From positions 1 through 12,370 of the forward strand of contig JBBRDV010000040.1 in assembly GCA_038203565.1 (NCBI GenBank): a stretch of 12,370 nucleotides of DNA, given 5' to 3'. The position numbers and the translations under genes were made by a program. The notes under the pieces are model-generated. The model was not told where the DNA came from and did not search any database. It was given only the letters and a program-made list of their open reading frames with translations. Below, piece after piece: positions 2 through 12,370 of this stretch (position 1 is the stretch's first letter; every line of letters starts with the position of its first letter). Source of the stretch: Atribacterota bacterium. GTDB lineage: Bacteria > Atribacterota > Phoenicimicrobiia > Phoenicimicrobiales > Phoenicimicrobiaceae.

Positions 2-46
2 GAAATATCTAAAAGGTTAGGCTATAATAAATTTATTGAAAAATGA
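2..46 (+). CDS. 3' end (partial) of a probable IclR-family transcriptional regulator
   Basis: Frame from nt 2 reads EISKRLGYNKFIEK-stop (TGA 44-46). The ...EISxxLGY ending is the typical C-terminal helix of IclR-family effector domains. Only 14 codons are visible. Confidence 0.55.
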   Translation, partial: EISKRLGYNKFIEK

Positions 47-132: not shown

Positions 133-1104
133 ATGGCAAAAGTAATTTTAATAGCCTTAGGTGGAAATGCGATAAAACAATCCAATGAAAAAGGATCTTC
201 GGAGGAACAGTTCAAGAATTGCTGGAAAACCACAAAACATATCTCAGAAATTATCAAAAACCTTGACCAGGAAGATCGGCTAGTCATTACCCATGGGAAT
301 GGTCCGCAAGTTGGTAATTTAATGGTACAACAAAAGTCGGCTCAAGATGTTGTCCCGGCTCATTCTATGGATGTAGTAGGTGCAATGACTCAAGGGCAAA
401 TTGGCTATATGTTGCAACAAACCTTAATAAATCATCTTAAAAAAATGGATCTTGATGTACCGGTTTGTGCGATAATAAATCAGGTTTTAGTAGATAAAAA
501 TGACCCAGAATTTTTTGGTGATAAAGCTTCCAAGCCGGTAGGTAATTTTCTAACCGCAGAAGAAGCTAAAGAAATGAAGGAGAATAACCCTCAATATATA
601 ATAAAACAGGTTAAGCCAAACGGAGAGCGCTGCTGGAGGAGAACCGTTCCTTCACCAGATCCCATAGCTAATTTAGAAGCCGAGGTTATTAAAAAGCTAG
701 TTGCTGCAGGAGTAATTGTTATTGCTTCCGGTGGCGGAGGTATACCGGTATTAGAAGATGAAGAGGGAAATTACCAAGGGATTGAGGCGGTAATAGATAA
801 AGATCTTGCTGGAGAAAGATTAGCAGAAATAGTAGGTGCTGATATTTTTTTAATTCTTACCGATGTAGGAGAAGCTAAAATTAATTATGGTAAAGCTAAC
901 GAGAAAGGTTTAGGTAAAATAACTTTCGAGGAAGCTAAACAATATTTTAAGGAAGGACATTTTCTGGCGGGAAGCATGGGGCCAAAGGTTAAAGCTTGTT
1001 TGAGATTTTTAGAAAATGGAGGGAAGAAAGCTATCATTACCTCTTTGGATAAGGCTTTAGAGGCTTTAAAGGAACAAAGCGGAACAATTATAGAAAAAGA
1101 TTAG
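133..1104 (+). CDS. arcC: Carbamate kinase
   Basis: ALGGNA, THGNGPQVG, GAMTQGQIGY, RRTVPSP, ASGGGGIPV, EAVIDKD, ILTDV and GSMGPKV motifs; 323 aa; RBS AGGAGG at 114-119. Confidence 0.96.
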   Translation: MAKVILIALGGNAIKQSNEKGSSEEQFKNCWKTTKHISEIIKNLDQEDRLVITHGNGPQVGNLMVQQKSAQDVVPAHSMDVVGAMTQGQIGYMLQQTLINHLKKMDLDVPVCAIINQVLVDKNDPEFFGDKASKPVGNFLTAEEAKEMKENNPQYIIKQVKPNGERCWRRTVPSPDPIANLEAEVIKKLVAAGVIVIASGGGGIPVLEDEEGNYQGIEAVIDKDLAGERLAEIVGADIFLILTDVGEAKINYGKANEKGLGKITFEEAKQYFKEGHFLAGSMGPKVKACLRFLENGGKKAIITSLDKALEALKEQSGTIIEKD

Positions 1105-1144
1105 GTAGTAAATCATAAAACTAAATTGAAAGGAATTGGTCGAA

Positions 1145-2068
1145 ATGTTAAAAGGGAAAGATATTTTAAATACTGCTCAGTTTTCGCCTCAAGAATTAAA
1201 TTTGATTATGAATACCGCTGCAAATTTTGAAAAACAAGTCAAAGATGGAAATATTATCAGAAATATGGAAGGTAAAATAGTAGCAACTTTATTTTTTGAA
1301 CCAAGTACCAGAACCCGTCTTTCTTTTGAAACTGCTGCCAATAGGTTGGGTGCTCGAGTAATTTCAGTAGCCAGTGCAGACAGTTCTTCTGCAGCTAAGG
1401 GAGAATCTTTGGCTGATACTATTAGGACAGTGGATGGTTATGCAGATGTTATTGTTATGCGTCATCCTATGAATGGCTCTGCCCAGATTGCAGCTGATAA
1501 TGCCAAACATCCTTTTATTAATGCCGGCGACGGAAGCGGACAACATCCCACGCAAGCTCTTTTAGATATATATACCATTCGTAAGGAAAAAGGGGCTTTA
1601 GGGGGGCAGACAGTTACTTTTGTGGGAGATTTAAAATATGGGCGGACCGTACATTCATTAAGTTATTTTATGACTCTCTATGGCAATAAAATGTTTTTTG
1701 TCTCTCCCAAATCTCTACAAATGCCATCAGAGATAACTGCTGATCTAAGAAGTCGGGGAGCAGATATTGAAGAGACTGAGGATCTAAAAAAAGCCTTATC
1801 GGTTAGTGATATTGTTTATGTTACCAGAATACAGAAAGAACGATTTGAAGACCTGACAGAATATGAAAAAGTCAAAGGTTCGTATATCATAAATATTTCT
1901 ATTATTAATCAAGCTAAAAAAGGAATTACCATTCTTCATCCCCTTCCCAGAGTAGATGAAATCTCCACTGATATTGATGATTATGAAGGAGCAGCTTACT
2001 TTAGACAAGCTCATAATGGAGTTTATATTAGGATGGCTCTTTTGGCTTTAGTAAGTGGTAAGGAATAG
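1145..2068 (+). CDS. pyrB: Aspartate carbamoyltransferase catalytic subunit
   Basis: FFEPSTRTRLSF (carbamoyl-phosphate binding), KGESL, MRH, NAGDG..HPTQ, GDLKYGRTVHS, TRIQKER and HPLP. The aspartate-specific Lys/Arg residues are present. ATG 1145 is preferred over TTG 1136 because AAGGA (1130-1134) is spaced correctly for it. Confidence 0.95.
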   Translation: MLKGKDILNTAQFSPQELNLIMNTAANFEKQVKDGNIIRNMEGKIVATLFFEPSTRTRLSFETAANRLGARVISVASADSSSAAKGESLADTIRTVDGYADVIVMRHPMNGSAQIAADNAKHPFINAGDGSGQHPTQALLDIYTIRKEKGALGGQTVTFVGDLKYGRTVHSLSYFMTLYGNKMFFVSPKSLQMPSEITADLRSRGADIEETEDLKKALSVSDIVYVTRIQKERFEDLTEYEKVKGSYIINISIINQAKKGITILHPLPRVDEISTDIDDYEGAAYFRQAHNGVYIRMALLALVSGKE

Positions 2069-2129
2069 AATAAATTTTAAAATTAGAACAATTTTAATGA
2101 TAATAAATATTTTATAAATAGAGAAATAA

Positions 2130-2930
2130 ATGAAAATAGAAAATATTAATATTCCCTTAATGATAAGTGGTAATTTAATTGAAAATATTAATTTAAATGA
2201 TAATTATTATAGAATGAGGATCGAAGCTCCTCAAATTGCCAGGAAAGCCAAACCAGGACAGTTTGTAATGTTATCTATGTGGAAAAATAAAGATCCTTTC
2301 CTAAAAAGGCCATTTAGTTTTTATGGAATTGAATCAGATAGTGGTACTTTTGATATTCTTTATAAGGAAATAGGTAAAGGTACACAAATAATGGCTAAAT
2401 CTAAAGTAGGTGATCTGGTAGAACTAATTGGGCCCCTTGGTAATGGTTTTATGATTCCAGAAAATACAAATAATATAGCTGTAGTTGCACGTGGTATAGG
2501 AATTGCTACCTTGATGCCCTTAATATTAGAAAGCAAGAAAAGAGGAATTGCAATTTATGCTTTCCTGTCTGCCCAGACAGGTAGTTTACTTTTATGTAGT
2601 AATGAGATTAATTCTATTTCTGAAAAAGTATTTTATACTACTGATGATGGTTCTAAAGGAGCGAAAGGGATAGTCACTAATTTTCTGGAGAATGTTTTAA
2701 AAGAAGAAGTCATTGATGTGGTTTACGTTTGTGGATCAAAAAGACTTACTAAACATATAAGAAATTTACAAAGAAAATATAATTTTTTAGCCTTTGTAAG
2801 CTTAGAGGAACATATGGCTTGCGGTATAGGTGCTTGTAAAGGTTGTGTTCATAAAACCAAAGATGGATATAAAAGAGTTTGTAAGGAAGGACCTGTTTTT
2901 CCAGTGGAAGAGGTGATTTTTGATGACTAA
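2130..2930 (+). CDS. pyrK: Dihydroorotate dehydrogenase electron transfer subunit (FAD, [2Fe-2S])
   Basis: KPGQFVML, RPFS (FAD), GPLGNGF, EEHMACGIGACKGC...RVCKEGPVF ([2Fe-2S]); overlaps pyrD. The NAD-binding motif is atypical (ARGIGIAT, CGSK). The RBS is weak, so the start is uncertain. Confidence 0.9.
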   Translation: MKIENINIPLMISGNLIENINLNDNYYRMRIEAPQIARKAKPGQFVMLSMWKNKDPFLKRPFSFYGIESDSGTFDILYKEIGKGTQIMAKSKVGDLVELIGPLGNGFMIPENTNNIAVVARGIGIATLMPLILESKKRGIAIYAFLSAQTGSLLLCSNEINSISEKVFYTTDDGSKGAKGIVTNFLENVLKEEVIDVVYVCGSKRLTKHIRNLQRKYNFLAFVSLEEHMACGIGACKGCVHKTKDGYKRVCKEGPVFPVEEVIFDD

Positions 2931-3840
2931 AGAAGTGAGCTTAGAGGTTGATTTGGGTCCTTTACATTTAAAAAATCCAGTTATGCCTGCCTCAGGCACT
3001 TTTGATATAAGATGTACTTTATTAAACGAAAAAGAGCTTAATAGATTAGGAGCAATACTTCCCAAGAGTATTGCTTTCCAAGAAAGAGAAGGAAATCCCG
3101 GGCCGAGGATTTGTGAAACTGATTGCGGATTATTAAATGCAGTCGGTGTGCCTTCTAAAGGTGTAGAATATTTTATAAAAGAAGAATTACCTCTATTAAA
3201 AAAAGCAAATAACATTATCATTGTTAGCCTGATGGGAAATTCTATTGAGGATTTTTGTAATTTAGCCGGATATCTTAATAACATTGAAGAGATTTCGGCA
3301 TTAGAAATAAATCTTTCTTGCCCAAATTTAAATAATGGCATTCCTTTTGGTGTTAACCAAGATAAATTATACGAATTAATCTTTAATATAAGGAAAAACA
3401 CTTCAAAACCCATTATTGCTAAATTATCACCAAATGTTTCCGATATAAAAGAAATGGCTTTAACTGCAAAAAATGCGGGAGCACAGATAATAACTGTTGC
3501 TAATACTTTAATGGGCATGGCCATAGATGTTGACAAGCAAGTCTTTCGATTAGGAAACACTATGGGAGGATTGTCTGGCCCAGCGATAAGACCTATCATA
3601 GTTAGAATGATCTGGGAGATTGCCCAATCCGTTGACATACCGATTATTGGGGTGGGAGGGGTTTATTGTGCTGAAAATGCCATTGAAATGCTTCTTGCCG
3701 GAGCGAGTGCGGTACAAATTGGCTCGGCTAATTTTTTTAATCCCTATGTAATGTTAGAGGTGATTGAAGGGATTGAAAAATATCTAATTAAAAAGAAATA
3801 TAATTCTATTCAAGATATAAGTGGCTTGGTGAAAAATTAA
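2923..3840 (+). CDS. pyrD: Dihydroorotate dehydrogenase family 1B catalytic subunit (FMN)
   Basis: LKNPVMPASGTF, GNPGPRICET, LNAVG, EINLSCPN (catalytic Cys), KLSPN, ANT, GGLSGPAIRP, IIGVGG and GASAVQIG. ATG 2923 follows RBS GAGGTG (2910-2915) and overlaps the pyrK stop. Confidence 0.94.
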   Translation: MTKEVSLEVDLGPLHLKNPVMPASGTFDIRCTLLNEKELNRLGAILPKSIAFQEREGNPGPRICETDCGLLNAVGVPSKGVEYFIKEELPLLKKANNIIIVSLMGNSIEDFCNLAGYLNNIEEISALEINLSCPNLNNGIPFGVNQDKLYELIFNIRKNTSKPIIAKLSPNVSDIKEMALTAKNAGAQIITVANTLMGMAIDVDKQVFRLGNTMGGLSGPAIRPIIVRMIWEIAQSVDIPIIGVGGVYCAENAIEMLLAGASAVQIGSANFFNPYVMLEVIEGIEKYLIKKKYNSIQDISGLVKN

Positions 3841-3859
3841 TATTTTATTTTAAATATAT

Positions 3860-3911
3860 TTTGATTTTATCAAAGTTAAACATCTTTGTTTTTTATTTGA
3901 TTTATAAATCA
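3860..3911. promoter_or_regulatory. Two palindromes upstream of the ABC transporter genes; candidate operator sites
   Basis: TTTGAT-TTT-ATCAAA (3860-3874) and the perfect 14-bp palindrome TGATTTATAAATCA (3898-3911), both in the pyrD-livH spacer. Confidence 0.35.
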
Positions 3912-3952
3912 TAGATTACAAATTTTAAAAAGGAGAAAGGAGAAATATTTGT

Positions 3953-4816
3953 ATGAGCTTACAGATGTTAATAAACGCAATCCTGCTGGGAGGATTGTAT
4001 GCCTTGATGGGTATAGGTTTTTCCTTACAATGGGGTATTAGCGGGATTATTAATTTATCCTATGGAGCAATGGTTATTTTAGGTTCTTATATTTCCCTGG
4101 AATTTTTTAATTTATTTCACCTAGACCCTTTTATTAGTATGATAATATCTGGCGCCATTCTTTTTGTAATAGGAGCAGCAATATATCGCACACTTTTACA
4201 ACCCTTTCTGAAAGGTGGAATTGTTTTTACCATTATTTTAACTTTTGCTGTTAGATTAATAGTAGAAAATATTATATTGAAAGTGTGGTCTGCTGACTAT
4301 CGTACTATACGCCTTACTTATGCTGGCAGTAATTTTCAATTTGGTGATGCCTATATTCCTTTAATAAAATTTTTAGCTTTTTTGGTAGCTGCAGTATTAA
4401 TTTATTTAACCTATCTTTTTATGATGAAAACGAAAATCGGAAAAGGAATTCAAGCGGTAGCTTTAGATAAAGAAGGTGCACAGGCAGTAGGGATGGATGT
4501 GGAAAAAATGTATCTAATTAATTTTGCTTTGGGAACCGCTTTAGCAGGATTAACCGGTTCGCTTTGGGCGAGCATCTATAGTTTTTCTCCTCACCTTTTA
4601 GGTCCCATTGTAGGAAAGGTATTTATTATTGCCATACTTGGGGGTTTAGGAAATATCTGGGGCGCAGCTGCCGGAGGTTTGCTTTTAGGGATTGCAGAAA
4701 CTGCGGGAGCAGTATTTCTTGGTTCAGAGTGGCAAGAGGCCATCGGTATGGTCATTATGGTAAGTGTATTGCTTTGGAGACCTTATGGACTTATGGGGAA
4801 AAAGTTTTTTGGTTAA
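3953..4816 (+). CDS. livH: HAAT (branched-chain amino acid-type) ABC transporter permease, LivH-like
   Basis: GGLYALMGIGFSLQWGISGIINLSYG, KTKIGKGIQAVA..A.AVGMD and ILGGLGNIWGA motifs; highly hydrophobic; RBS AGGAG at 3938-3942. The symbol is family-level and the substrate is unknown. Confidence 0.92.
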   Translation: MSLQMLINAILLGGLYALMGIGFSLQWGISGIINLSYGAMVILGSYISLEFFNLFHLDPFISMIISGAILFVIGAAIYRTLLQPFLKGGIVFTIILTFAVRLIVENIILKVWSADYRTIRLTYAGSNFQFGDAYIPLIKFLAFLVAAVLIYLTYLFMMKTKIGKGIQAVALDKEGAQAVGMDVEKMYLINFALGTALAGLTGSLWASIYSFSPHLLGPIVGKVFIIAILGGLGNIWGAAAGGLLLGIAETAGAVFLGSEWQEAIGMVIMVSVLLWRPYGLMGKKFFG

Positions 4817-4848
4817 TTTAGGAATTATTTGAGAGAGGAGGAGCGAAG

Positions 4849-5814
4849 TTGGTGTTAAATAATAAAAAAGTAAATATTTTCCTATTAATAATAGGAATAA
4901 TTTTATTTATCTTTTTGCCGCGCTTTATATCAGGTTATTGGGTTAGAGTCATTACTACTATCTTTATGTATGCGGTAATTTCTCAAGGAATTAATCTTAT
5001 GTCCGGTTATATGGGTTATCTTCCTTTTGGTAATGCCATGTTTTTTGGGATAGGAGCTTATGTTACTGCCATCGGTATGAGTAAGGGGCTGCCTTTTTTA
5101 GTCGTTGTTCCTTTAGCTGCTATTACTGCAATCTTGTTTAGTATTATATTTGGACTCCCGGTGCTTAGACTTCGGGGTCATTATTTTGCTATTGCTACTA
5201 TTGGTATAAGTGGAGCACTTTTATCAGTAGTGCAAAATGCTACTGAGATAACCGGTGGAGCTATGGGAACTACCTTACCCATTATTGATAAGTCACCAGA
5301 AATAACCTATAATTACTTCTATTTGGCTATGTTGGCTTTGATGGTAATTACTACTCTAACCATATATTTGGTAATCAAATCAAAATTTGGTTTTGGAATA
5401 CGAAGTATAAAGGCTAATGAAGAGGCAGCAAATTCTATGGGAATTAATACTACTTATCATAAAGTAACAGCCTGGGCAATAAGTGCTTTATTTACCAGCA
5501 TAGCGGGTGCTCTTTATGCCTATTGGATGTCTTTTATTGGTCCTGAAGAAGTGTTTGATGTCATGATCGCAGTAAATACTATTGTTATTATGCTTATTGG
5601 AGGAGCGGGCAGTATTTTAGGCCCCATAATTGGTGCATTTGTAATTGAACTGTTTTCCGAGGTGGTTTGGAGTAGTTTTCTTGAATATCATCTTGCTGTG
5701 TTGGGAATTACTATTATTATTATTGTATTCTTTGTTCCCAAAGGAATTACTGGTACTATTGCTGATTTTGTAAAAAAAAGAGAATTAAGACTAAGAAAGA
5801 AGGTGAGTGTATAA
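4849..5814 (+). CDS. livM: HAAT ABC transporter permease, LivM-like
   Basis: NLMSGYMG...G.AMFFGIGAY, LRLRGHYFAIAT, SKFG..IRSIKANEEAA.SMGIN and IGG.GSILGPIIGA; TTG start with RBS GGAGG at 4837-4841. Confidence 0.92.
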   Translation: MVLNNKKVNIFLLIIGIILFIFLPRFISGYWVRVITTIFMYAVISQGINLMSGYMGYLPFGNAMFFGIGAYVTAIGMSKGLPFLVVVPLAAITAILFSIIFGLPVLRLRGHYFAIATIGISGALLSVVQNATEITGGAMGTTLPIIDKSPEITYNYFYLAMLALMVITTLTIYLVIKSKFGFGIRSIKANEEAANSMGINTTYHKVTAWAISALFTSIAGALYAYWMSFIGPEEVFDVMIAVNTIVIMLIGGAGSILGPIIGAFVIELFSEVVWSSFLEYHLAVLGITIIIIVFFVPKGITGTIADFVKKRELRLRKKVSV

Positions 5815-6583
5815 GGTGGGAGAAAATAATATAATCTTAAAAATAAAGACTTTAAGTAAACATTTTGGAGCTTTAAAGGCAGTAGATGAGGTTAGCTTTG
5901 AAGTAAAAAAGGGTGAAATAGTGGGATTAATTGGTCCTAATGGTGCTGGGAAGACCACCCTTACTAATCTTGTTACCGGTGCTTCCCCTAAAACGGCGGG
6001 TAAAGTAATTTTTAAAGATTTAGACATAAGTAATTTAAAACCTTATCAGATAGCCCGGAATGGATTAACCCGTACCTTTCAAGTAGTGAAACCTTTAATA
6101 GGAATGACGGTAGAGGAAAATGTATTAGTCGGTTCTCTTTTTGGGAGAGATAAGAGAAATACTGATATGAAAAATGCATCTAAAAGAGCCAGAGAAATAA
6201 TAAAATTAGTAGGCTTGGAGAGCAAAAAAGATTCTTCAGTAAGTGATATCACTTTACCTGATCTAAAAAAAATGGAATTTGCTCGAGTTTTAGCTATGGA
6301 ACCTGAAGTATTATTTTTAGATGAAGTTATGGCCGGTTTGAACCCGGCAGAAGTGGAAGAAGCAAGTATTTTAGTAAAAAGAGTCAGGAGAGAAAAAGAA
6401 TTAACTATAGTATATATTGAACATATTATGAAAGCGGTAATGGGAATTTCAGATAGAATTGTAGTTTTACATCACGGCAGAAAGATAGTAGAAGGCACCC
6501 CTCAAGAAGTAGTAAATAATTCAGCAGTTATTGAAGCTTATTTGGGGAAAAGGTATACTAAGGAGGTAAACAATGAAGGATAA
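5807..6583 (+). CDS. livG: HAAT ABC transporter ATP-binding protein, LivG-like
   Basis: HFGALKAV, Walker A GPNGAGKT, RTFQ, LFLDE.MAGLN, IEH and C-terminal VIEAYLG. The true start may be the in-frame GTG at 5816. Confidence 0.93.
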   Translation: MYKVGENNIILKIKTLSKHFGALKAVDEVSFEVKKGEIVGLIGPNGAGKTTLTNLVTGASPKTAGKVIFKDLDISNLKPYQIARNGLTRTFQVVKPLIGMTVEENVLVGSLFGRDKRNTDMKNASKRAREIIKLVGLESKKDSSVSDITLPDLKKMEFARVLAMEPEVLFLDEVMAGLNPAEVEEASILVKRVRREKELTIVYIEHIMKAVMGISDRIVVLHHGRKIVEGTPQEVVNNSAVIEAYLGKRYTKEVNNEG

Positions 6584-7298
6584 TCTATTATTGAAAGTTT
6601 CCAATCTTGATGCAGGTTATGGTGGAATTCAAGTTCTGTGGGGTATAAGCTTGGAAGTAAAACAAAAAGAGGTGGTGTGTGTAATCGGGGCAAATGGAGC
6701 GGGGAAGAGTACGCTATTAAAGAGTATTGTAGGAATGATTCCCTCTACTAAAGGTGAAATATTTTATTCAGGAAACAATATCACTAAAATGGCTTCTCCA
6801 GAAAGAATAAAAATGGGACTCGGTTTTGCTCCCGAGGGAAGACATTTATTTTTTGGATTAACCGTAGAAGACAATCTTTTGATGGGTGCTTTTCAAAGAA
6901 AGTATAATCAAAGTGTAAAAGAAGATTTAGATTTTGTCTATGCCCTCTTTAAACCGTTAAAAGGATATAGCAGAAAACTTGCCGGGAATTTATCCGGAGG
7001 CGAACAGCAGATGTGTGCTATAGGAAGAGCTTTAATGTCCCATCCCACCTTACTTATCATCGATGAACTTTCTTTAGGATTGGCTCCGGTGGTGGTAGAT
7101 GATTTAATCGATATAATAGCTAAATTAAGGAAGGAAAGAGGGATTGGCATATTATTGGTTGAACAAGATGTAAAAGTTGCTTTAGATATAGCAGATAGAG
7201 GGTATGTGTTAGAGGCAGGAGTGGTATCTATTCATGATAAGGCTGATAAGTTAGCTAAGAATGAACATATAAAAGCCGCTTATTTAGGAGTAGCCTAA
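6573..7298 (+). CDS. livF: HAAT ABC transporter ATP-binding protein, LivF-like
   Basis: GANGAGKST, PEGRHLF, signature LSGGEQQM, DELSLGLAP, LLVEQ and AYLG; RBS AGGAGG at 6561-6566; overlaps the livG stop. Confidence 0.94.
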   Translation: MKDNLLLKVSNLDAGYGGIQVLWGISLEVKQKEVVCVIGANGAGKSTLLKSIVGMIPSTKGEIFYSGNNITKMASPERIKMGLGFAPEGRHLFFGLTVEDNLLMGAFQRKYNQSVKEDLDFVYALFKPLKGYSRKLAGNLSGGEQQMCAIGRALMSHPTLLIIDELSLGLAPVVVDDLIDIIAKLRKERGIGILLVEQDVKVALDIADRGYVLEAGVVSIHDKADKLAKNEHIKAAYLGVA

Positions 7299-7452
7299 TA
7301 ATTAAATACAGTTCGAATACTTGGAAAAGTGATTCTTGCAGGTGAAATAAAAAAAAGAAAAAGAGGGTGGTAGATGAAAAAAATAAGGAAGTATAGAGGA
7401 ATAGAAAGCTAATTAAAAATTTGTCTAATCAAATAAAATGGAGGATAAAAAA

Positions 7453-8673
7453 GTGAAAAAAGTAATAATTATTGTCATGTTAATCAGTATTTTATTGCTT
7501 GGCTTAACCGGAATAGTGTCTGCTCAGGAAAATATAATAAAAATTGGGGTCGCAGTTTCTTTAACTGGTAAAATAGCTTATGAGGGAAGATTGGTTAAGG
7601 ATGGATATGAGGTATGGGAAGATTGGGTCAATAGTCATGGAGGTATCACTGCCGGAGGGATAAATTATAAAGTAAAGATGGTTTATTATGATGATGAAAG
7701 TACTCCAGTGAGAGGTGCAAAACTTACTGAAATGTTGATAACTCAGAATAAAGTAGATTTTCTATTTGGTCCATTCTCTAGTGCTATTACCTTTGCCACT
7801 ACTGCTATCGCAGAAAAATACAATATAATTACTATAGCTCCGGAAGCAAATGCTACTAACGTGTATGAAAGAGGATATAAAAACGTATTTTCCATTCTTC
7901 CGCCAGCTCCAATGTTAATGGTACCTATTGCTTATATGGCAGAAAATTTAATCCCCAAACCAAAAACAGTAGCTATTATTGCAGCCAATGATCTGTTCCC
8001 ATTAAGCTGTGCTGAGGGAGCTAGAGATAAATTTGCAGAATTGGGATTTGACGTCGTTCTTTTTGAAAAATACCCTGCGGGTGCGACCGATCTATCTGCT
8101 TTACTTACCAAAGTTAAAAATTTGAATCCTGATATTTTAATAGATGCTGGTTATACAGCAGATAGCTTGATGGTCATTAGGCAATGTAAGGAATTAAATA
8201 TTAATCCGAAAATTTATGCTTTCGCAGTAGGAGTAATGATTCCCAGTTTTGTACAAGAATTGGGTGCTGATGCTGAATATGTTTTTGAAGGTGAATGGTG
8301 GCTTCCGGGTATGAAGCTTAGTGATAAAGTATTCGGAACTACCGCAGATTACGTACAAGCATGTAAGGATAAATTTGGAAAAGATTATATGCCAGAATAC
8401 CATGTATCCAGTGCCAGTGCTGCAGGAACCTTACTGCAATTAGCTATAGAGAAAGCAGATTCTATAGAAACCGATAAAGTGCGAGAAGCTCTTTCAAGTT
8501 TAGATGTAGAGTTAACCACTTGGCCGGCAATTGCCTTTAATGAAAAAGGACAAAATATTAAATGGCCGCATCCTATAATACAAGTCCAGAATGGTAAGTA
8601 TGTCATTGTATATCCTGAATCTTCTCAGGAAAATGCTCCAATTTATCCAGCTCCGGAATGGAAGGATAGATAA
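7453..8673 (+). CDS. HAAT ABC transporter substrate-binding protein (LivJ/K-like type I periplasmic binding fold)
   Basis: Signal peptide MKKVIIIVMLISILLLGLTGIVSA|QE with no lipobox Cys; IKIGVAVSLTG, N..GGI, YYDDES, VDFLFGPFSS. GTG 7453 is preferred because GGAGG at 7440-7444 precedes it and overlaps the ORF-track ATG at 7438. Confidence 0.9.
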   Translation: MKKVIIIVMLISILLLGLTGIVSAQENIIKIGVAVSLTGKIAYEGRLVKDGYEVWEDWVNSHGGITAGGINYKVKMVYYDDESTPVRGAKLTEMLITQNKVDFLFGPFSSAITFATTAIAEKYNIITIAPEANATNVYERGYKNVFSILPPAPMLMVPIAYMAENLIPKPKTVAIIAANDLFPLSCAEGARDKFAELGFDVVLFEKYPAGATDLSALLTKVKNLNPDILIDAGYTADSLMVIRQCKELNINPKIYAFAVGVMIPSFVQELGADAEYVFEGEWWLPGMKLSDKVFGTTADYVQACKDKFGKDYMPEYHVSSASAAGTLLQLAIEKADSIETDKVREALSSLDVELTTWPAIAFNEKGQNIKWPHPIIQVQNGKYVIVYPESSQENAPIYPAPEWKDR

Positions 8674-8684
8674 TATACAATCAT

Positions 8685-8728
8685 GTGAAATAGGGGTTGT
8701 AATAAATTTACAACCCCTATTTCACTTT
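8685..8728 (+). terminator. Perfect 18-bp inverted repeat; intrinsic terminator or mRNA-stabilising stem-loop
   Basis: GTGAAATAGGGGTTGTAA (8685-8702), loop TAAAT, TTACAACCCCTATTTCAC (8708-8725), then TTT; 11 nt after the binding-protein stop. Confidence 0.75.
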
Positions 8729-8835
8729 AAAAAATATCAACGGATATGAAGATGATATATGGAATTATAATTTATTATTAGCAATATTAATATTATAATA
8801 TATTAAGCTGTTATTTTATTATAAAAGGGAATATT

Positions 8836-9090
8836 ATGAAGATTATTAGGAATGATAATTTATGTTACGCCTGCAAAACCTGTCAATTAATCTGTTCCTT
8901 TCACCATACTAATACCTTCTGGCCTGAACGAAGCAGTATCATCGTTTCTCGCAATCCTCAAGATGGCACCATAAAATGGTTCAAGAATGCTTCCTGTGAT
9001 CAATGTATCAATGAAAAAGAGCCTTTATGCGTCAAATACTGTATTTATGGAGCACTTCAATTAGTAAAAGAGGTAAAAGAATATGATTGA
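8836..9090 (+). CDS. Small 2[4Fe-4S] ferredoxin-like protein, probable electron-transfer partner of the AOR-family enzyme
   Basis: CYACKTCQLIC (CxxCxxCxxxC) and CDQC-x7-CVKYC..GAL; 84 aa; the stop overlaps the start of the next gene. Confidence 0.85.
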   Translation: MKIIRNDNLCYACKTCQLICSFHHTNTFWPERSSIIVSRNPQDGTIKWFKNASCDQCINEKEPLCVKYCIYGALQLVKEVKEYD

Positions 9091-11014
9091 AAGAAGAGAT
9101 ATCAAAGGTTGTCTTGCGGGTAAAATTTTACGGGTAGATTTATCCAATAAAAAGATATGGGCTGAAGATACGGAAAAATACGCAAAGAAAACATTGGGTG
9201 GCAGAGGGATTAATTCTCTTATTATGATCAATGAGATAGCTCCACAGGTAAAATGGTATGATCCGGAAAATCTTCTTTGTTTTGGGGTAGGGTCTCTTGT
9301 GGGTACAATGGCTCCCGGTGCCTGCAGAGTAGATGTTTCTACTATAAATGTATTTAGCGGGGGGAAAGGTTCAGCTAATGTGGGAGGTTTCTGGGGGGCA
9401 GAATTAAAATATGCTGGATACGATAATATAATTATTATCGGTAAATCGGAAAAAGCAGTTTATTTATATATAAATGACAACCATATTGAGATTAGAGAAG
9501 CTAATTTTATATGGGGTAAAACTATTTTTGAAACAGAAAAAATATTACAGCAAAAACTTGGAGATAATGACATAAAAATTGCCTCCATCGGACCAGCGGG
9601 AGAAAATCGGGTTAGAGGTTCAGCAATAATTATAGATACCGCGAGAGCTGCTGGCGGTTCAGGAGTAGGTTGTGTCATGGGAGATAAAAGACTTAAAGCT
9701 ATTGTAGTTAGAGGACATGGAAAAATTGAAGTTGCTGAACCAGAAAGATTTATGAAAGCAGTAGAGAAATGCTATCGGCAGTGCAAGAATGAGCCTAATA
9801 CAAAAATGATGCATAAAGCCCCATTGAATCTTTATTCCGATCCTGAATGGGAAGGATGGAATACGAATATTGTGGTTAAAAATGGACAAGATGATCAATG
9901 GGAGAAGGTAAATAGAATCAGATTAATGAATTTTAAAACAGGTGTCCCTAACCTGCAAAAAGGAGTACGTGCCTGTTATTCTTGTCCTACGGGATGCATG
10001 CCATATATGGAAATAAATAAAGGAAAATATAAAGGTAATAAAGGTGAGGGTTTTTGGATTAATACCATTATGGGGCATGCCTGCCGCTTTAATATTTCAG
10101 ATCCTGAATCTGTGGTAGAGTCCTGGTTGCTTACCAATGAGCTAGGATTAGATGGTGATTATGTGGCCGCTGGATTATCCTGGATTTTTGAATTATATGA
10201 AAAAGGAATGATTAATCAGAAAGATACCGATGGTTTAGAATTAACCTGGGGCAATGGTGATGCCTTAAATAAACTAATTAAAAAGCTTGCTTACCGAGAA
10301 GGGTTTGGGGATTTTTTGGCTGATGGCATGGCAGAAGTGGCGAAAAAAATCGGTCAGAATTCAGAATATTATCTTATTCAAGTAAAAGGACAGCCTTCAA
10401 TTGAGCCTTTTCGTATTCCCAAGGGCTGGGCGTTGGCTGTATCTACCTCACCCGTAGCGGGGAGGCATTTAAGAGGGGCAACTATGGGAAGCAATAAATA
10501 TGGTCCTAAACCGAGACCGGGTAATTTTGGTGTAACTGATTACCAAAATCAGGCCAAGGGTGTGGTATGGCAGGGGAAGACTAAAGAATTAGAAGATAAC
10601 CTGGGCATCTGTAATTATGTAGGGACCTGGTCTGGAGCCAATTTTCTTACCATAGCAGATTTTACAGAGCTTATTAACGCTGGAATGGGTCTTGATTTGA
10701 CTGAAGAAGACTTGATGAACCATTATGCAGTTATAGGCAGAAATCTTGAAAAAGCATTTAATACCTTGCACACTGGTATGTCTCGCAAAGATGATCTTCC
10801 TCCGAAGAGATTTCAAGAGGAGGAAGTAAAATCCGGACCTTATAAAGGTTATAAAATAGAGGAAAATAAATACAATAAAATGCTTGATGAATTTTATGAG
10901 CTTTGGGGATGGGATAAAAAAACCGGGATGCAGACCAGGACAGGTTTAGAAAATCTCGGATTAATAGATATTGCGGAAAAGATAGAAAAACAGGGTAAGT
11001 TAATCGATAAATAA
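9083..11014 (+). CDS. aor: Aldehyde:ferredoxin oxidoreductase family (tungstopterin, AOR/WOR) protein, divergent active site
   Basis: GKILRVDLS, LGGRG, GG.WGAELKYAGYD, SIGPAGEN, VMG.K.LKAI, CYSCPTGC plus LGIC ([4Fe-4S]), ELGLD, REGFGDFLADG, DDLPPKRF and EFYELWGWD; 643 aa. Confidence 0.92.
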   Translation: MIERRDIKGCLAGKILRVDLSNKKIWAEDTEKYAKKTLGGRGINSLIMINEIAPQVKWYDPENLLCFGVGSLVGTMAPGACRVDVSTINVFSGGKGSANVGGFWGAELKYAGYDNIIIIGKSEKAVYLYINDNHIEIREANFIWGKTIFETEKILQQKLGDNDIKIASIGPAGENRVRGSAIIIDTARAAGGSGVGCVMGDKRLKAIVVRGHGKIEVAEPERFMKAVEKCYRQCKNEPNTKMMHKAPLNLYSDPEWEGWNTNIVVKNGQDDQWEKVNRIRLMNFKTGVPNLQKGVRACYSCPTGCMPYMEINKGKYKGNKGEGFWINTIMGHACRFNISDPESVVESWLLTNELGLDGDYVAAGLSWIFELYEKGMINQKDTDGLELTWGNGDALNKLIKKLAYREGFGDFLADGMAEVAKKIGQNSEYYLIQVKGQPSIEPFRIPKGWALAVSTSPVAGRHLRGATMGSNKYGPKPRPGNFGVTDYQNQAKGVVWQGKTKELEDNLGICNYVGTWSGANFLTIADFTELINAGMGLDLTEEDLMNHYAVIGRNLEKAFNTLHTGMSRKDDLPPKRFQEEEVKSGPYKGYKIEENKYNKMLDEFYELWGWDKKTGMQTRTGLENLGLIDIAEKIEKQGKLIDK

Positions 11015-11046
11015 TTAATAGTATATTTCTTCACAGGAGGTTTATT

Positions 11047-11718
11047 TTGAAAATATTGTGTATAAATCCTAATAGCTCATCTGAGGTAACCGAGGGTATT
11101 GAAAAAATTTGCAAAGAGTACGCTTTGCCAGGTACAGAAGTAGAAATTAAATTAATTAAAGAAGCTCCTTCAGGCATAGAAAGTTATCACGATGCAGCCA
11201 TTTCTGAAAAATATTTATTAGAAAGATTTAAAGGATGGAAAGAGAAGTATGATGGGTTTATTATTGCCTGCCATAGTGATATAGGAGTGGACTTGCTTAG
11301 AGAATTAACTGATAAACCAGTAATAGGTATCGGAGAAGCTTCCATGCTTTTTGCTTTGCCTTTGGGGCATAAATTTAGTATACTTTCTTTAAAAAGAAAA
11401 AAAATTCCTCAAAAGGAAGATTTAGTAAAAAAATATGGTCTTGAGAATAGGTGTGCATCTATTCGAGCTACCGGATTGGGAGTAGTTGCTCATTATAAAG
11501 AGAAAAGAGAAAAGCTTATTCAAGAAGGAGAAAAGGCAGTAAAAGAGGATAGAGCAGAAGTTCTTATTCTGGGGTGCGCAGGGATGGCTGGACTTGATAA
11601 AGAAATTGAAAAAATAGTCGGTGTTCCGGTGATTGATGGAGTAGTTAGTGCATTGATGTTAATGGAATCACTTATTAGATACGGAGCATCAACAAGCAAA
11701 GTGGGTAAATATTTATAA
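11047..11718 (+). CDS. Asp/Glu/hydantoin racemase family protein (allantoin/hydantoin racemase-like)
   Basis: INPNSS, IIACHSD (Cys75), LRE...PVIGIGEA, LGCAGM (Cys177) and VPVIDGV, the two-cysteine racemase pattern; TTG start with RBS AGGAGG at 11035-11040. Confidence 0.9.
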   Translation: MKILCINPNSSSEVTEGIEKICKEYALPGTEVEIKLIKEAPSGIESYHDAAISEKYLLERFKGWKEKYDGFIIACHSDIGVDLLRELTDKPVIGIGEASMLFALPLGHKFSILSLKRKKIPQKEDLVKKYGLENRCASIRATGLGVVAHYKEKREKLIQEGEKAVKEDRAEVLILGCAGMAGLDKEIEKIVGVPVIDGVVSALMLMESLIRYGASTSKVGKYL

Positions 11719-11868
11719 TAAACTTAATTATTTTACTTAAATTTCAAATAAAAATATTTCATACTTGATATTATCCTAATATTTATGTTTTTTATCGTGT
11801 AATATATTGTTAATTAGAATAGAATCTATTAGCAAGAGATTAGGAAAAAACCACCCGGAGGATAAGTT

Positions 11869-12370
11869 ATGAAAAATTTTGATCTTGTAATTAAATCAGA
11901 CAAGATATTTATAGATGGCAGACTGACGGATTGTTGTATTGGGGTAAAGGATGGAATAATTTCCACCATAAGCAAAGAAAAACTAACCGCAGAAAAAGTC
12001 ATTGATGCACAAGGTAAAATTGTTTTACCAGGCACAATAGATCCCCATGTGCATATTCGAGCTCCTGGACATGATGAAAGAGAGACTTTTGAAAGCGGCA
12101 CAAAAGATGCTGCTTTAGGCGGGGTTACTACAGTAATTGAAATGCCCATTTCTACTCCTCCACCCCATTCTCCGGAAATAGTAGAAAGAAGAATGAATGT
12201 AGCTAAAAAGGAGGCGGTAGTCGATATTGCATTTTTTGGTGCGGCAGGAACGGACTGTCTGGAGGATATTATTCCTTGTGCTAAATCTGGTATTGTTGCT
12301 TTTAAAACCTTTTTGCATGAGGCTCCTCCGGGAAGAAAAGAGGAGTTTATCGGGCTTACTGCACCAAATA
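11869..12370 (+). CDS. Dihydroorotase/allantoinase-family cyclic amidohydrolase, 5' part (runs off the window; absent from the ORF track)
   Basis: RBS GGAGG at 11857-11861 and ATG 11869, open to the end of the window. Manual translation: MKNFDLVIKSDKIFIDG...VIDAQGKIVLPGTIDPHVHIRAPGHDERETFESGTKDAALGGVTTVIEMP...GIVAFKTFLHE. Confidence 0.92.
   Translation, partial: MKNFDLVIKSDKIFIDGRLTDCCIGVKDGIISTISKEKLTAEKVIDAQGKIVLPGTIDPHVHIRAPGHDERETFESGTKDAALGGVTTVIEMPISTPPPHSPEIVERRMNVAKKEAVVDIAFFGAAGTDCLEDIIPCAKSGIVAFKTFLHEAPPGRKEEFIGLTAPN

Follow-up and report, generated by a model that had tools for sequence, protein, structure and literature searches.

The window, by which we mean the whole 12,370-nucleotide stretch analysed here, is the entire contig C40 of G000, an uncultured Caldatribacteriota (JS1) bacterium, and its 13 open reading frames are co-oriented on the + strand, each one being present by profile search and sequence. 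It opens with the last 14 codons of an IclR-family regulator gene (2..46), whose 14 C-terminal residues exactly match the C-terminus of the IclR protein of G002, an orthologue that matches IclR-family HMMs; the full gene lies on contig C18, which shares 141 bases with the window start, bearing out the sequence-only reading's probable IclR gene ahead of the cluster. There follow arcC, encoding carbamate kinase (133..1104; TIGR00746, 366 bits against a cut-off of 358), pyrB, encoding the catalytic chain of aspartate carbamoyltransferase, or ATCase (1136..2068; TIGR00670, 376 against 237), and second copies of pyrK, the electron-transfer subunit (2130..2930; PF10418, with NF000798 at 210.5, slightly below its cut-off of 219), and class 1B pyrD (2920..3840; NF005574, 358 against 269). 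The HMM-assigned genes of a HAAT/liv-type ABC importer (livH, livM, livG, livF and a binding protein; 3953..8673) precede a ferredoxin-like small Fe-S frame (8836..9090), a putative oxidoreductase partner that had no HMM hit and owes its name to a Cys motif and to a paralogue adjoining a second AOR-family gene on contig C46. Last come an AOR-family, tungsten-type oxidoreductase (9083..11014; PF02730 and PF01314), a member of the hydantoin/allantoin racemase family (11047..11718; PF01177) and an L-hydantoinase-like cyclic amidohydrolase (11869..12369) that bears an HxHxR motif and of which the contig end leaves only the 5' part; contig C118 holds its 3' part, then PEPCK. The gene order described previously is confirmed, as is the lack of carAB, pyrI, pyrE, pyrF and pyrR within the window.

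By its sequence, PyrB is a canonical ATCase without a PyrI partner. The STRT, HPTQ, RxQ and HPLP motifs are all intact, the best solved match is an aspartate transcarbamoylase (1ml4), and by Table 1 of Barba 2013 the protein's motifs are those of a genuine ATCase rather than of a pseudo-ATCase, hence its product should be aspartate. In a quick tree, PyrB belongs to a group of 31 rows without PyrI (pyrI in 0/31), which has an SH-aLRT of only 83, against 100 for the core clade of JS1 and Clostridia. Within this group arcC lies no more than 1.5 kb away in 16 rows, and a gene removing aspartate or another C4 compound no more than 10 kb away in 15; the remaining 76 rows have neither. Such genes have been recruited in several lineages, as aspA, PEPCK, aspartate aminotransferase or oxaloacetate decarboxylase: aspA or PEPCK is found within 6 kb of the amidohydrolase at 14 of 16 JS1 loci read, and in gut metagenomes there are loci with oxaloacetate decarboxylase, aspartate aminotransferase and the amidohydrolase divergent from arcC-pyrB. 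We consider it quite probable that the ATCase and carbamate kinase act catabolically.

The neighbourhoods of the module span four phyla, although related genomes are not independent of one another, and many of the gut loci nearly duplicate each other. Five of the 351 genomes of G043's phylum, Desulfobacterota, were selected blind by an orthologue of the large subunit of a xanthine dehydrogenase-family (Xdh) hydroxylase, and all five have argF-amidohydrolase-pyrB-arcC, with IclR seen in four. These genes share a single operon with the Xdh pair in G974 and G1008, are spread with it over three contigs with compatible split genes in G043, and occupy a locus apart from Xdh in G1057 and G1174. As to the synteny that the sequence-only reading proposed to check, amidohydrolase-pyrB-arcC recurs in other phyla, and the cluster-type pyrD is found in only 15 of the 29 JS1 genomes with this pyrB. 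A point against a catabolic reading is that AspA, PEPCK and aspartate aminotransferase can each run in either direction.

The nearest structure to a full-length orthologue of the amidohydrolase is an L-hydantoinase (1gkr), and its best-scoring model is hydantoin-5-propionate amidohydrolase, though under that model's cut-off; the earlier label of a dihydroorotase-like enzyme was therefore loose. The enzyme is predicted to open hydantoin-5-acetate, and probably dihydroorotate as well. The racemase has both catalytic cysteines when aligned to 3qvj and 5lfd. The AOR-family enzyme, whose best solved match is 1aor, presumably uses tungsten, and its predicted role is to convert imidazole- or hydantoin-acetaldehyde into the corresponding acid; a relative with 55% identity lies near the Xdh gene in G1174. 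Among the loci checked, it is G1057 and G1174 that have the importer's nearest non-JS1 relatives (binding protein 39-51% over the segments that match), and there they flank amidohydrolase-pyrB-arcC.

Beyond the window, a HisC-family transaminase, indolepyruvate-type oxidoreductase (IOR), ADP-forming acyl-CoA synthetase and two Xdh-family hydroxylases recur in association with the module. In G003 and G016, a block of IOR, acyl-CoA synthetase and Xdh genes shares its contig and strand with pyrB and lies 15-16 kb upstream of it; in the Anaerolineae genome G883, pyrB-Xdh-amidohydrolase is followed by IorAB and acyl-CoA synthetase; at gut loci L174 and L178, IorAB, acyl-CoA synthetase and a racemase adjoin arcC-pyrB; and at the JS1-type locus L217, IorAB and acyl-CoA synthetase stand directly ahead of the amidohydrolase. 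The transaminase gene is directly 5' of iorA in four of six JS1 genomes read (G000, G019, G028 and G029). That of G000 scores below the hisC cut-off (263 against 277 bits), and G019 holds a separate hisC among its his genes. Urocanase was found in one of 41 genomes.

We therefore propose, at what we regard as an even chance, that the cluster is the lower half of an anaerobic route taking a five-membered cyclic ureide, most likely hydantoin-5-acetate from histidine, through N-carbamoyl-L-aspartate to aspartate and carbamoyl phosphate (CP). Hydantoin-5-acetate, named as an alternative substrate in the sequence-only reading, is the best fit; that histidine or imidazole-acetate is the main feed seems to us evenly balanced. 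In the upper half, encoded on other G000 contigs, a polar-amino-acid ABC importer would bring in histidine, the HisC-family transaminase would convert it to imidazole-pyruvate, IorAB would yield imidazole-acetyl-CoA, the acyl-CoA synthetase would release imidazole-4-acetate with ATP, and the two Xdh-family enzymes would add two water-derived hydroxyls, giving racemic hydantoin-5-acetate. In the window, the AOR-family enzyme would rescue the aldehyde form, the racemase would funnel the D to the L form, which would account for its presence, the amidohydrolase would open the ring to N-carbamoyl-L-aspartate, PyrB would phosphorolyse this to aspartate and CP, and ArcC would turn surplus CP into ATP. 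Aspartate would be drained by AspA, fumarase and malic enzyme, or by PEPCK, in JS1, and elsewhere by aspartate aminotransferase, which a sodium-pumping oxaloacetate decarboxylase sometimes accompanies. Histidine appears to be the only standard amino acid that could give carbamoyl-aspartate once its chain has lost one carbon and its ring has been hydroxylated twice and opened. Against this route, no more than 18 of the 29 carriers yielded an Xdh orthologue, in G000 its gene does not adjoin the window, and no Xdh gene is in view at the gut loci with IOR and racemase.

Parts of this route have known counterparts, although no anaerobic histidine-to-aspartate route via ATCase was found in the literature searched. 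The Arthrobacter hyu hydantoin cascade consists of a racemase, an L-hydantoinase and an L-carbamoylase. It likewise places a racemase beside an L-hydantoinase-like amidohydrolase, but here ATCase and carbamate kinase replace the hydrolytic carbamoylase, and the predicted substrate is carboxylated. The ArcABC arginine deiminase, agmatine deiminase, Escherichia coli AllFGH-AllK and Rubrobacter UGTCase systems similarly split a ureido compound with phosphate and form ATP by carbamate kinase from adjacent genes (PMC6022934, PMC4016543); the enzyme here differs in being a canonical ATCase, rather than an OTCase, PTCase or pseudo-ATCase, and usually the cell's only one, and no deiminase is present; the ureide would instead derive from a hydantoin or dihydropyrimidine ring. 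Thermococcus kodakarensis converts histidine to imidazole-acetate using a transaminase (TK0548) and an ADP-forming imidazole-acetyl-CoA synthetase (PMC9986279, which cites Awano 2014), families that, with 2-oxoacid:ferredoxin oxidoreductase, are also linked to this module; the part of that report available describes no step beyond imidazole-acetate, whereas here, on predicted specificity, two Xdh-family enzymes and the window genes would continue to aspartate. The Pseudomonas Hin pathway, from histamine through imidazole-4-acetate to aspartate, shares an intermediate and the end product, but uses HinFLHG in aerobic growth, and the available text mentions no ATCase, carbamate kinase or hydantoin racemase (PMC8231116).

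The alternative that survives best, though we think it unlikely, is that of the sequence-only reading, in which the cluster would chiefly import orotate, the second PyrKD would reduce it, and the dihydroorotate would be opened to give ATP through ATCase and carbamate kinase. Clostridium (Zymobacterium) oroticum reportedly reduces and degrades orotate with a class 1B orotate reductase. The cluster resembles it in combining class 1B PyrD, its active-site loop aligned to solved enzymes, with PyrK and a ring-opening amidohydrolase, but here carbamoyl-aspartate would be phosphorolysed rather than hydrolysed, and PyrKD is optional. All 16 JS1 genomes with the cluster pyrD hold another, and 13 of 14 second-pyrD loci read are housekeeping pyrKD without pyrB or pyrC; G000 itself has a pyrR-pyrK-pyrD-pyrF operon, and the housekeeping pyrK, on contig C169, is 36% identical to that of the window. 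Moreover, gut loci L183 and L191 run arcC-pyrB-pyrK-pyrD and then a dicarboxylate symporter, and their amidohydrolase group keeps the dihydroorotase Arg/Asn/His triad. However, the JS1 amidohydrolase retains only the Arg of this triad, and pyrKD is missing from about half of JS1 carriers and from all Chloroflexota and Desulfobacterota-phylum operons read. Neither a racemase nor an aldehyde oxidoreductase is needed to reduce orotate stereospecifically, and these, with the links to Xdh and IOR, would be left unexplained. Hence orotate is probably not the main feed, and the cluster PyrKD is likely an optional orotate-reducing feeder, which might also serve as an electron sink.

Biosynthesis presents a different challenge, since a housekeeping second set, sought in G000 as the sequence-only reading had suggested, exists for pyrK and pyrD but not for pyrB: that of the window is the sole ATCase found, contrary to a purely fermentative enzyme with a separate housekeeping copy. 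This type is the only ATCase found in all 29 JS1 carriers and in nine of ten other genomes checked by NF002032, making a biosynthetic duty likely; G799, with this cluster and a separate pyrC-pyrB-pyrF operon, is a point for the catabolic role. We consider it improbable that, where carAB-pyrBI-pyrC has been lost, carbamate kinase simply acts as carbamoyl phosphate synthetase (CPS) and starts de novo pyrimidine synthesis together with PyrB and the amidohydrolase. In keeping with this replacement, cluster pyrB and canonical pyrB-pyrI-pyrC are mutually exclusive (29 and 4 of 41 genomes, together in none), the amidohydrolase accompanies 27 of the 29 and none of the four, and it survives with pyrB where other cluster genes are deleted (G003, G009 and G015). 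In G000 (99% complete), which has argF and hypF and a single carbamate kinase match, arcC, neither carB or another CPS nor arginine deiminase was found, and carB is absent from 26 of 29 JS1 carriers and 5/5 genomes of another set. A carbamate kinase-like CPS has also been proposed for Pyrococcus (PMC6022934). Yet arcC-pyrB coexists with carB in G019, G036, G041 and all five Desulfobacterota-phylum genomes selected by another gene (carB being split in G1174), hence carbamate kinase is not required in those five as a CP source, while carbamate kinase and carB both went undetected in two genomes with pyrB, G003 (98% complete) and G013 (96%). In T. kodakarensis, deleting arcC changed little, and carbamate kinase was unable to supply CP (PMC13260591); the genome lacks CPS, and a catabolic carbamoyltransferase of the arginine synthetase pathway provides the CP for HypF and for biosynthesis. 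Here the donor would instead be carbamoyl-aspartate, itself a pyrimidine precursor. Nor does biosynthesis need an importer, IclR regulator or racemase. With a single ATCase and carB not found, the module is probably dual-use: because most JS1 genomes lack carAB, pyrBI and pyrC, the same PyrB and amidohydrolase probably also provide the housekeeping PyrKD-F-E operon with dihydroorotate, and ArgF and HypF with CP, as a hub that would be reversible.

Gene context backs phosphorolysis after ring opening with ATP formation by ArcC, as first suggested, though not a purely fermentative role. By a calculation that uses standard energies of the citrulline analogue, the reaction would run catabolically only with aspartate kept at 0.004-0.8 of carbamoyl-aspartate, and high ammonium works against it. 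As ABC import costs roughly what carbamate kinase gives back, any net gain must arise at other steps and would be small, such that "ATP-yielding" was an overstatement.

Slightly less probable than such an anabolic replacement is that another heterocycle, such as a pyrimidine acid that the Xdh pair would hydroxylate, feeds a catabolic ATCase and carbamate kinase, the transaminase, IOR and synthetase block independently serving aromatic amino acids, as it could, given that HisC-family transaminases and IOR also act on Phe, Tyr and Trp. No characterised protein is closely related to the Xdh subunits (4-hydroxybenzoyl-CoA reductase being the best solved match, and the best plasmid hit 39%), some clusters have deaminase-like genes, and a UbiD-family gene, two pyrKD pairs, Xdh and pyrB occur together at gut loci such as L220. 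Against this, three lineages show linkage of IOR and acyl-CoA synthetase with the ATCase module, and no common pyrimidine would seem to yield carbamoyl-aspartate by hydroxylation alone. Finally, Bird et al. (2019), who report no CPS but allantoinase-carbamoyltransferase operons in 15 Atribacteria single-cell genomes (PMC6469976), read such genes as allantoin catabolism by racemase, allantoinase, a carbamoyltransferase for allantoate, and carbamate kinase. This is very unlikely here, for although the racemase's closest solved relatives are allantoin racemases, the amidohydrolase, labelled allantoinase by NCBI/JGI, falls only 3 bits short of that cut-off (354.8 against 357.85), and a ureidoglycine carbamoyltransferase route is known (PMC4016543), PyrB has RxQ and HPLP rather than UGTCase-type motifs, the amidohydrolase has a carboxylate-binding Arg absent from G000's other, allantoinase-scoring group, and the recruited downstream genes act on aspartate, not glyoxylate.

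The module formed by aspartate transcarbamylase (ATCase, PyrB) and carbamate kinase (CK, ArcC) is real, conserved and undescribed, and is probably dual-use. It belongs among the catabolic carbamoyltransferase routes, as a variant, and it is most likely fed by histidine, not mainly by orotate. The gene list drawn up in the sequence-only reading is borne out, with all 13 plus-strand genes matching, and its probable IclR gene is confirmed: the window opens with the last 14 codons of this gene, which is complete on contig C18 across an overlap of 141 bases. At the other end, the amidohydrolase gene runs on into contig C118, where GTP-PEPCK is next. That reading had proposed an orotate and carbamoyl-aspartate fermentation, in which PyrDK, the amidohydrolase, ATCase and ArcC would yield ATP, operating beside a second, housekeeping set of pyrimidine genes. 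Such a set exists in part in the source genome G000 (1.97 Mb, 99.25% complete), of which the window is the entire contig C40: contig C169 holds a second pyrR-pyrK-pyrD-pyrF block, without pyrB or pyrC inside, meaning the window pyrD is not the only copy and pyrF is not just outside the window. By contrast with this part of the set, no second pyrB, no canonical pyrC or pyrI and no carB were found in G000, and pyrB, like arcC, is single-copy, as the same reading had recognised would tell against it. The query used did not find pyrE in G000, which is read as an assembly break, since C169 stops within pyrF, the gene that pyrE comes after in relatives. The further carbamoyltransferases of G000 are ArgF (29%) and an enzyme of the purine cluster (21%). 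The genome also has hypF and arginine-synthesis genes, all of which require carbamoyl phosphate (CP). Scans of the window for promoters (56 against 46.6 +/- 6.6) and terminators (10 against 8.4) stayed at chance level, and 18 RNA runs cover small shares of the region (0.06-0.16), with no bearing either way on expression or habitat.

The motifs S[TR]RT, HP[ST]Q, HP[LG]P and RxQ, which distinguish genuine ATCases from the pseudo-ATCases listed in the available text of Barba et al. 2013 (PMC4016543), are all four present in the window PyrB, in 13 aligned JS1 orthologues, and in the proteins of two genomes from another phylum, G974 and G1008. Identity as a pseudo-ATCase or UGTCase is ruled out by these motifs. 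In a quick tree of 107 PyrB-type proteins, the window protein falls in a 23-row clade of JS1 and Clostridia (SH-aLRT 100), nested in a weaker 31-row group with Chloroflexota, Syntrophaceae and Coprothermobacterota (SH-aLRT 83). Within this group arcC is nearby in 16 rows and an aspartate/C4 gene in 15, with neither found for any of the other 76 tree rows; pyrI, which adjoins pyrB in biosynthetic holoenzymes of the E. coli/archaeal type, was found within 1.5 kb in 0 of the 31. The ATCase module is rare outside JS1: PyrB of the window type occurs in G041 alone among the 301 genomes of its order, in two of 399 scored genomes in its class, where two more were unscored, and in two of the 151 genomes from the order to which G042 belongs.

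The JS1 sample comprised 41 genomes including G000, 60-100% complete, whose tallies are patterns rather than statistics because kin genomes are not independent. Cluster-type pyrB is found in 29 of these (the carriers, four of them partial), the canonical pyrB-pyrI-pyrC in four, and both together in none, with the cluster amidohydrolase in 27 of the 29 carriers and in none of the four canonical-pyr genomes. These patterns indicate that in JS1 the canonical pair has given way to the cluster PyrB and amidohydrolase, which probably have a biosynthetic role too. The surroundings of the cluster look catabolic: of 16 JS1 loci read, 14 have aspA or PEPCK no more than 6 kb from the amidohydrolase, and fumarase and malic enzyme are added nearby in two genomes (G025 and G029). 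The cluster pyrD occurs in 16 of the 41 genomes, always with another pyrD; 13 of the 14 second-pyrD loci read were housekeeping loci without pyrB and pyrC, the other (in G008) being a cluster fragment. One canonical pyr locus, L140 (G029:C3), is worn down to pyrK-pyrD, and its flanks enclose pyrB-pyrI-pyrC-pyrF-pyrK-pyrD-pyrE in G031, G034 and G039.

The best explanation is that the cluster encodes the lower half of an anaerobic histidine route. Histidine would pass through imidazole-pyruvate and imidazole-acetyl-CoA to imidazole-4-acetate, forming ATP, as the available part of PMC9986279 describes for T. kodakarensis; two hydroxylations would then produce hydantoin-5-acetate, which ring opening would convert to N-carbamoyl-aspartate, and ATCase would split this into aspartate and CP. 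The racemase is explained because the chiral centre of hydantoin-5-acetate would form by tautomerisation. The CP would be drawn on by CK, ArgF and HypF, and aspartate removed by AspA, PEPCK or an aminotransferase/decarboxylase, and the second PyrKD would most plausibly serve as an optional side branch for orotate. Phosphorolysis by PyrB coupled to ATP formation by CK is a prediction from gene context. With the energies of the citrulline analogue, the lower half would lie near equilibrium, such that aspartate must stay low; as ABC import roughly cancels the CK gain, the benefit of the route would come from CP, nitrogen, reducing power and the ATP made in the upper half. Pseudomonas also obtains aspartate from imidazole-4-acetate, but by a different, aerobic route, according to the accessible portion of PMC8231116. 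The complete scheme would be an undescribed anaerobic oxidative pathway, in which histidine gives imidazole-acetate and ATP, molybdoenzymes perform the double hydroxylation, and hydantoin-5-acetate is racemised and opened to carbamoyl-aspartate for a catabolic ATCase phosphorolysis that yields a second ATP. It would also feed pyrimidine, arginine and hydrogenase synthesis, letting an abundant subsurface lineage discard carbamoyl-phosphate synthetase (CPS, carAB) and build UMP rings, in effect, from histidine; we advance it tentatively, as somewhat more likely to fail than to hold in full.

Genes suited to the upper half occur in JS1. The large subunit of a Chloroflexota Xdh-family hydroxylase (Xdh) has 52-55% orthologues in 20 of the 41 JS1 genomes (18/29 carriers, 0/4 canonical), in a block containing a polar-amino-acid ABC importer, a HisC-family transaminase, IorAB (IOR), an ADP-forming acyl-CoA synthetase, two Xdh enzymes and maturation genes. 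In G003 and G016 this block shares contig and strand with pyrB and lies 15-16 kb 5' of it; in G000 most of its genes are on C140, C127, C195, C218, C46 and C182, together with an AOR paralogue, and the maturation genes are on C18, immediately upstream of the window. The G000 assembly yielded no second Xdh large subunit, and a plasmid search with the Xdh subunit returned nothing above 39% identity. At the family level, the transaminase, IOR and ADP-forming acyl-CoA synthetase of the Thermococcus-type route are present and linked: the transaminase precedes iorA in four of the six JS1 genomes that were read, and in G019 a further hisC lies with the his genes (gene names from motifs). Unlike the Hut (urocanate) pathway, G000 has no detected urocanase gene, hutU being found in one of the 41 JS1 genomes. 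Several considerations count against the histidine route. Firstly, members of the transaminase and IOR families act on aromatic amino acids as well, and the specificity of these enzymes and the synthetase for histidine and imidazole-acetate is predicted. Secondly, 11 of the 29 carriers yielded no Xdh gene, nor is one in view in the gut IOR/racemase loci. Thirdly, PyrB is nearly always the sole ATCase. Some loci have other entry genes, namely an MttB-family methyltransferase (L056:7610-9061), a LarA-family 2-hydroxyacid racemase before iorA (L317:2745-4004) and an Ldh_2-family dehydrogenase (L061:248-1390), which, speculatively, would suit entry from methyl-histidine/hercynine or imidazole-lactate.

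The same associations recur in other phyla. When metagenomes were scanned with a PyrB from Clostridiales, 80 loci were returned, many of them near-duplicates, and arcC and pyrB calls in GC-rich loci were made by tblastn. Gut loci place oxaloacetate decarboxylase, aspartate aminotransferase and the amidohydrolase divergently from arcC-pyrB, a run that extends into pyrK-pyrD and a dicarboxylate symporter in L183 and L191, and into the racemase, IorAB, acyl-CoA synthetase and an aminotransferase in L174 and L178. Five Chloroflexota loci combine IclR, pyrB and two Xdh-family enzymes, most adding an aspartate-aminotransferase-like gene, and the amidohydrolase where in view; that of G883 additionally has IorAB and acyl-CoA synthetase. 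Genome G799 has the cluster and a separate pyrC-pyrB-pyrF operon. An independent search of 351 genomes of the phylum of G043, using the Xdh subunit rather than pyrB as the query, matched five, including G043, and all five carry argF-amidohydrolase-pyrB-arcC. This set and the Xdh pair form a single operon in G974 and G1008, and are spread over three contigs that fit together in G043; in G1057 and G1174 the set is at a separate locus, beside a window-type ABC importer, and G1174 has a 55% relative of the window AOR enzyme near its Xdh gene. Each of the five has carB and only one ATCase over the cut-off. The position of argF, inserted within the Xdh/amidohydrolase/pyrB/arcC operon (L346-L349, L372 and L373, in these five genomes), is a direct hint of module CP passing to ornithine carbamoyltransferase. 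A second ATCase-like gene follows arcC in G1057 and G1174.

Of the competing readings, the proposal of orotate as substrate survives in part: the conserved ATCase-CK module and its catabolic context stand, and the window PyrD is of class 1B by family, adjoining PyrK and catalytic Cys loop, but pyrB is the only copy and orotate is probably not the main feed. The available text of Bird et al. (PMC6469976) assigns allantoinase-carbamoyltransferase operons of Atribacteria to allantoin catabolism, and both the racemase, which retains its two catalytic cysteines in alignment to 3qvj and is nearest to allantoin racemases, and the amidohydrolase resemble allantoin enzymes. Two orthologues of the latter score 354.8 and 342 bits against the allantoinase model TIGR03178 (cut-off 357.85), which the purine-cluster paralogue exceeds at 400.7 bits. 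The top-scoring model for this amidohydrolase is NF058539, the hydantoin-5-propionate amidohydrolase ErtD (366 bits, below the cut-off of 650), and its nearest structure is the L-hydantoinase 1gkr. The JS1 enzyme is over the broad TIGR00857 cut-off, yet under every dihydroorotase equivalog, and retains only Arg of the Arg/Asn/His triad that we take to be the carboxylate site of type I dihydroorotase, with canonical JS1 pyrC rows as the control. As a search query, it returned JS1 copies and relatives without gene context. The window oxidoreductase is of the AOR family, and the window binding protein, compared with solved structures and the protein atlas, gave generic HAAT-family matches only, as that of the upstream polar-amino-acid importer gave generic Gln/Arg/His-type matches only. 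A separate purine/ureide-type cluster (G000:C78; L051, G011:C3; L052, G020:C21; L151; L152) encodes an amidohydrolase that scores as an allantoinase, along with one or two carbamoyltransferases, of which one is ATCase-like with HSLP and without RxQ, and some copies have a second CK type (42-44%) or Xdh and SsnA-like genes; it may be the operon of Bird et al.

An older proposal, summarised in the consulted part of PMC6022934, has CK acting anabolically as the CPS. Canonical CPS was not found in G000 and 26 of the 29 carriers (carB being found in 7/41 JS1 genomes, including 3/29 carriers and 3/4 canonical-pyr genomes), and is present in G019, G036, G041 and five Desulfobacterota-phylum genomes. 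However, Michimori et al., in the portion available (PMC13260591), report that CK is not a source of CP in T. kodakarensis. The cluster arcC is found in 18 of the 29 carriers, and neither CK nor carB was found in five, including G003 (98%) and G013 (96%). CK directly beside the transferase, the arrangement of catabolic pathways, is found in 14 of the 29 carriers, where arcC is immediately 5' of pyrB, in G041, which also has carB, and in all five Desulfobacterota-phylum genomes; in CPS-containing cells, this adjacency is hard to read as biosynthetic. The arginine deiminase pathway and the hyu hydantoin cascade both differ from the cluster, as the deiminase gene (PF02274) was not found in G000, nor an N-carbamoylase among the window ORFs. 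As read in a JS1 carrier (L287, G036:C41), carAB heads the arginine operon, which comes after pyrE in carAB-less genomes. In G003 (98% complete), locus L035 (G003:C34) retains pyrB-amidohydrolase-PEPCK along with an OTCase-like gene, but neither CK nor carB was found.

Textbook accounts present ATCase as the committed, irreversible entry into pyrimidine synthesis. In the published literature, with subscription journals and older papers mostly outside the search, neither a catabolic ATCase-CK route nor a route from imidazole-acetate to hydantoin-acetate was found described. A clade running ATCase backwards with CK would, if true, be the missing aspartate member of the catabolic carbamoyltransferases. 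If the histidine link holds, imidazole-acetate would have an anaerobic fate and histidine a urocanate-independent route, spanning JS1, Chloroflexota, Desulfobacterota-phylum and gut Clostridia-like genomes; orphan Xdh- and AOR-family enzymes would gain substrates, and the CP source of CPS-less JS1 bacteria, which Bird et al. 2019 (PMC6469976, as far as available) attributed to allantoin, would be accounted for.

Related gene arrangements accompany other contexts. In the human gut, locus L220 and some 30 others nearly identical to it (L219-L248) have a UbiD-family gene, pyrK-pyrD, an Xdh set, a TRAP transporter, pyrB, a second pyrK-pyrD, MATE and aspartate aminotransferase, with arcC and the amidohydrolase absent within 10 kb, possibly representing a carboxylation route into orotate. 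L192 / L282 (G574:C8) reads amidohydrolase-pyrR-pyrF-pyrE-IclR-arcC-pyrB-deaminase-TRAP-deaminase-PucR, a single stretch that mixes pyrimidine genes for synthesis with those for breakdown; no carB was found in this genome. L324 (G034:C5) is a classic hydrolytic hydantoin cascade of NCS1 permease, racemase, hydantoinase-like enzyme and N-carbamoylase, in a genome with a canonical pyr operon and no CK. L323 (G040:C31) has a TRAP transporter, arcC, a different carbamoyltransferase and an amidohydrolase that is 51% identical to the JS1 enzyme and over the allantoinase cut-off.
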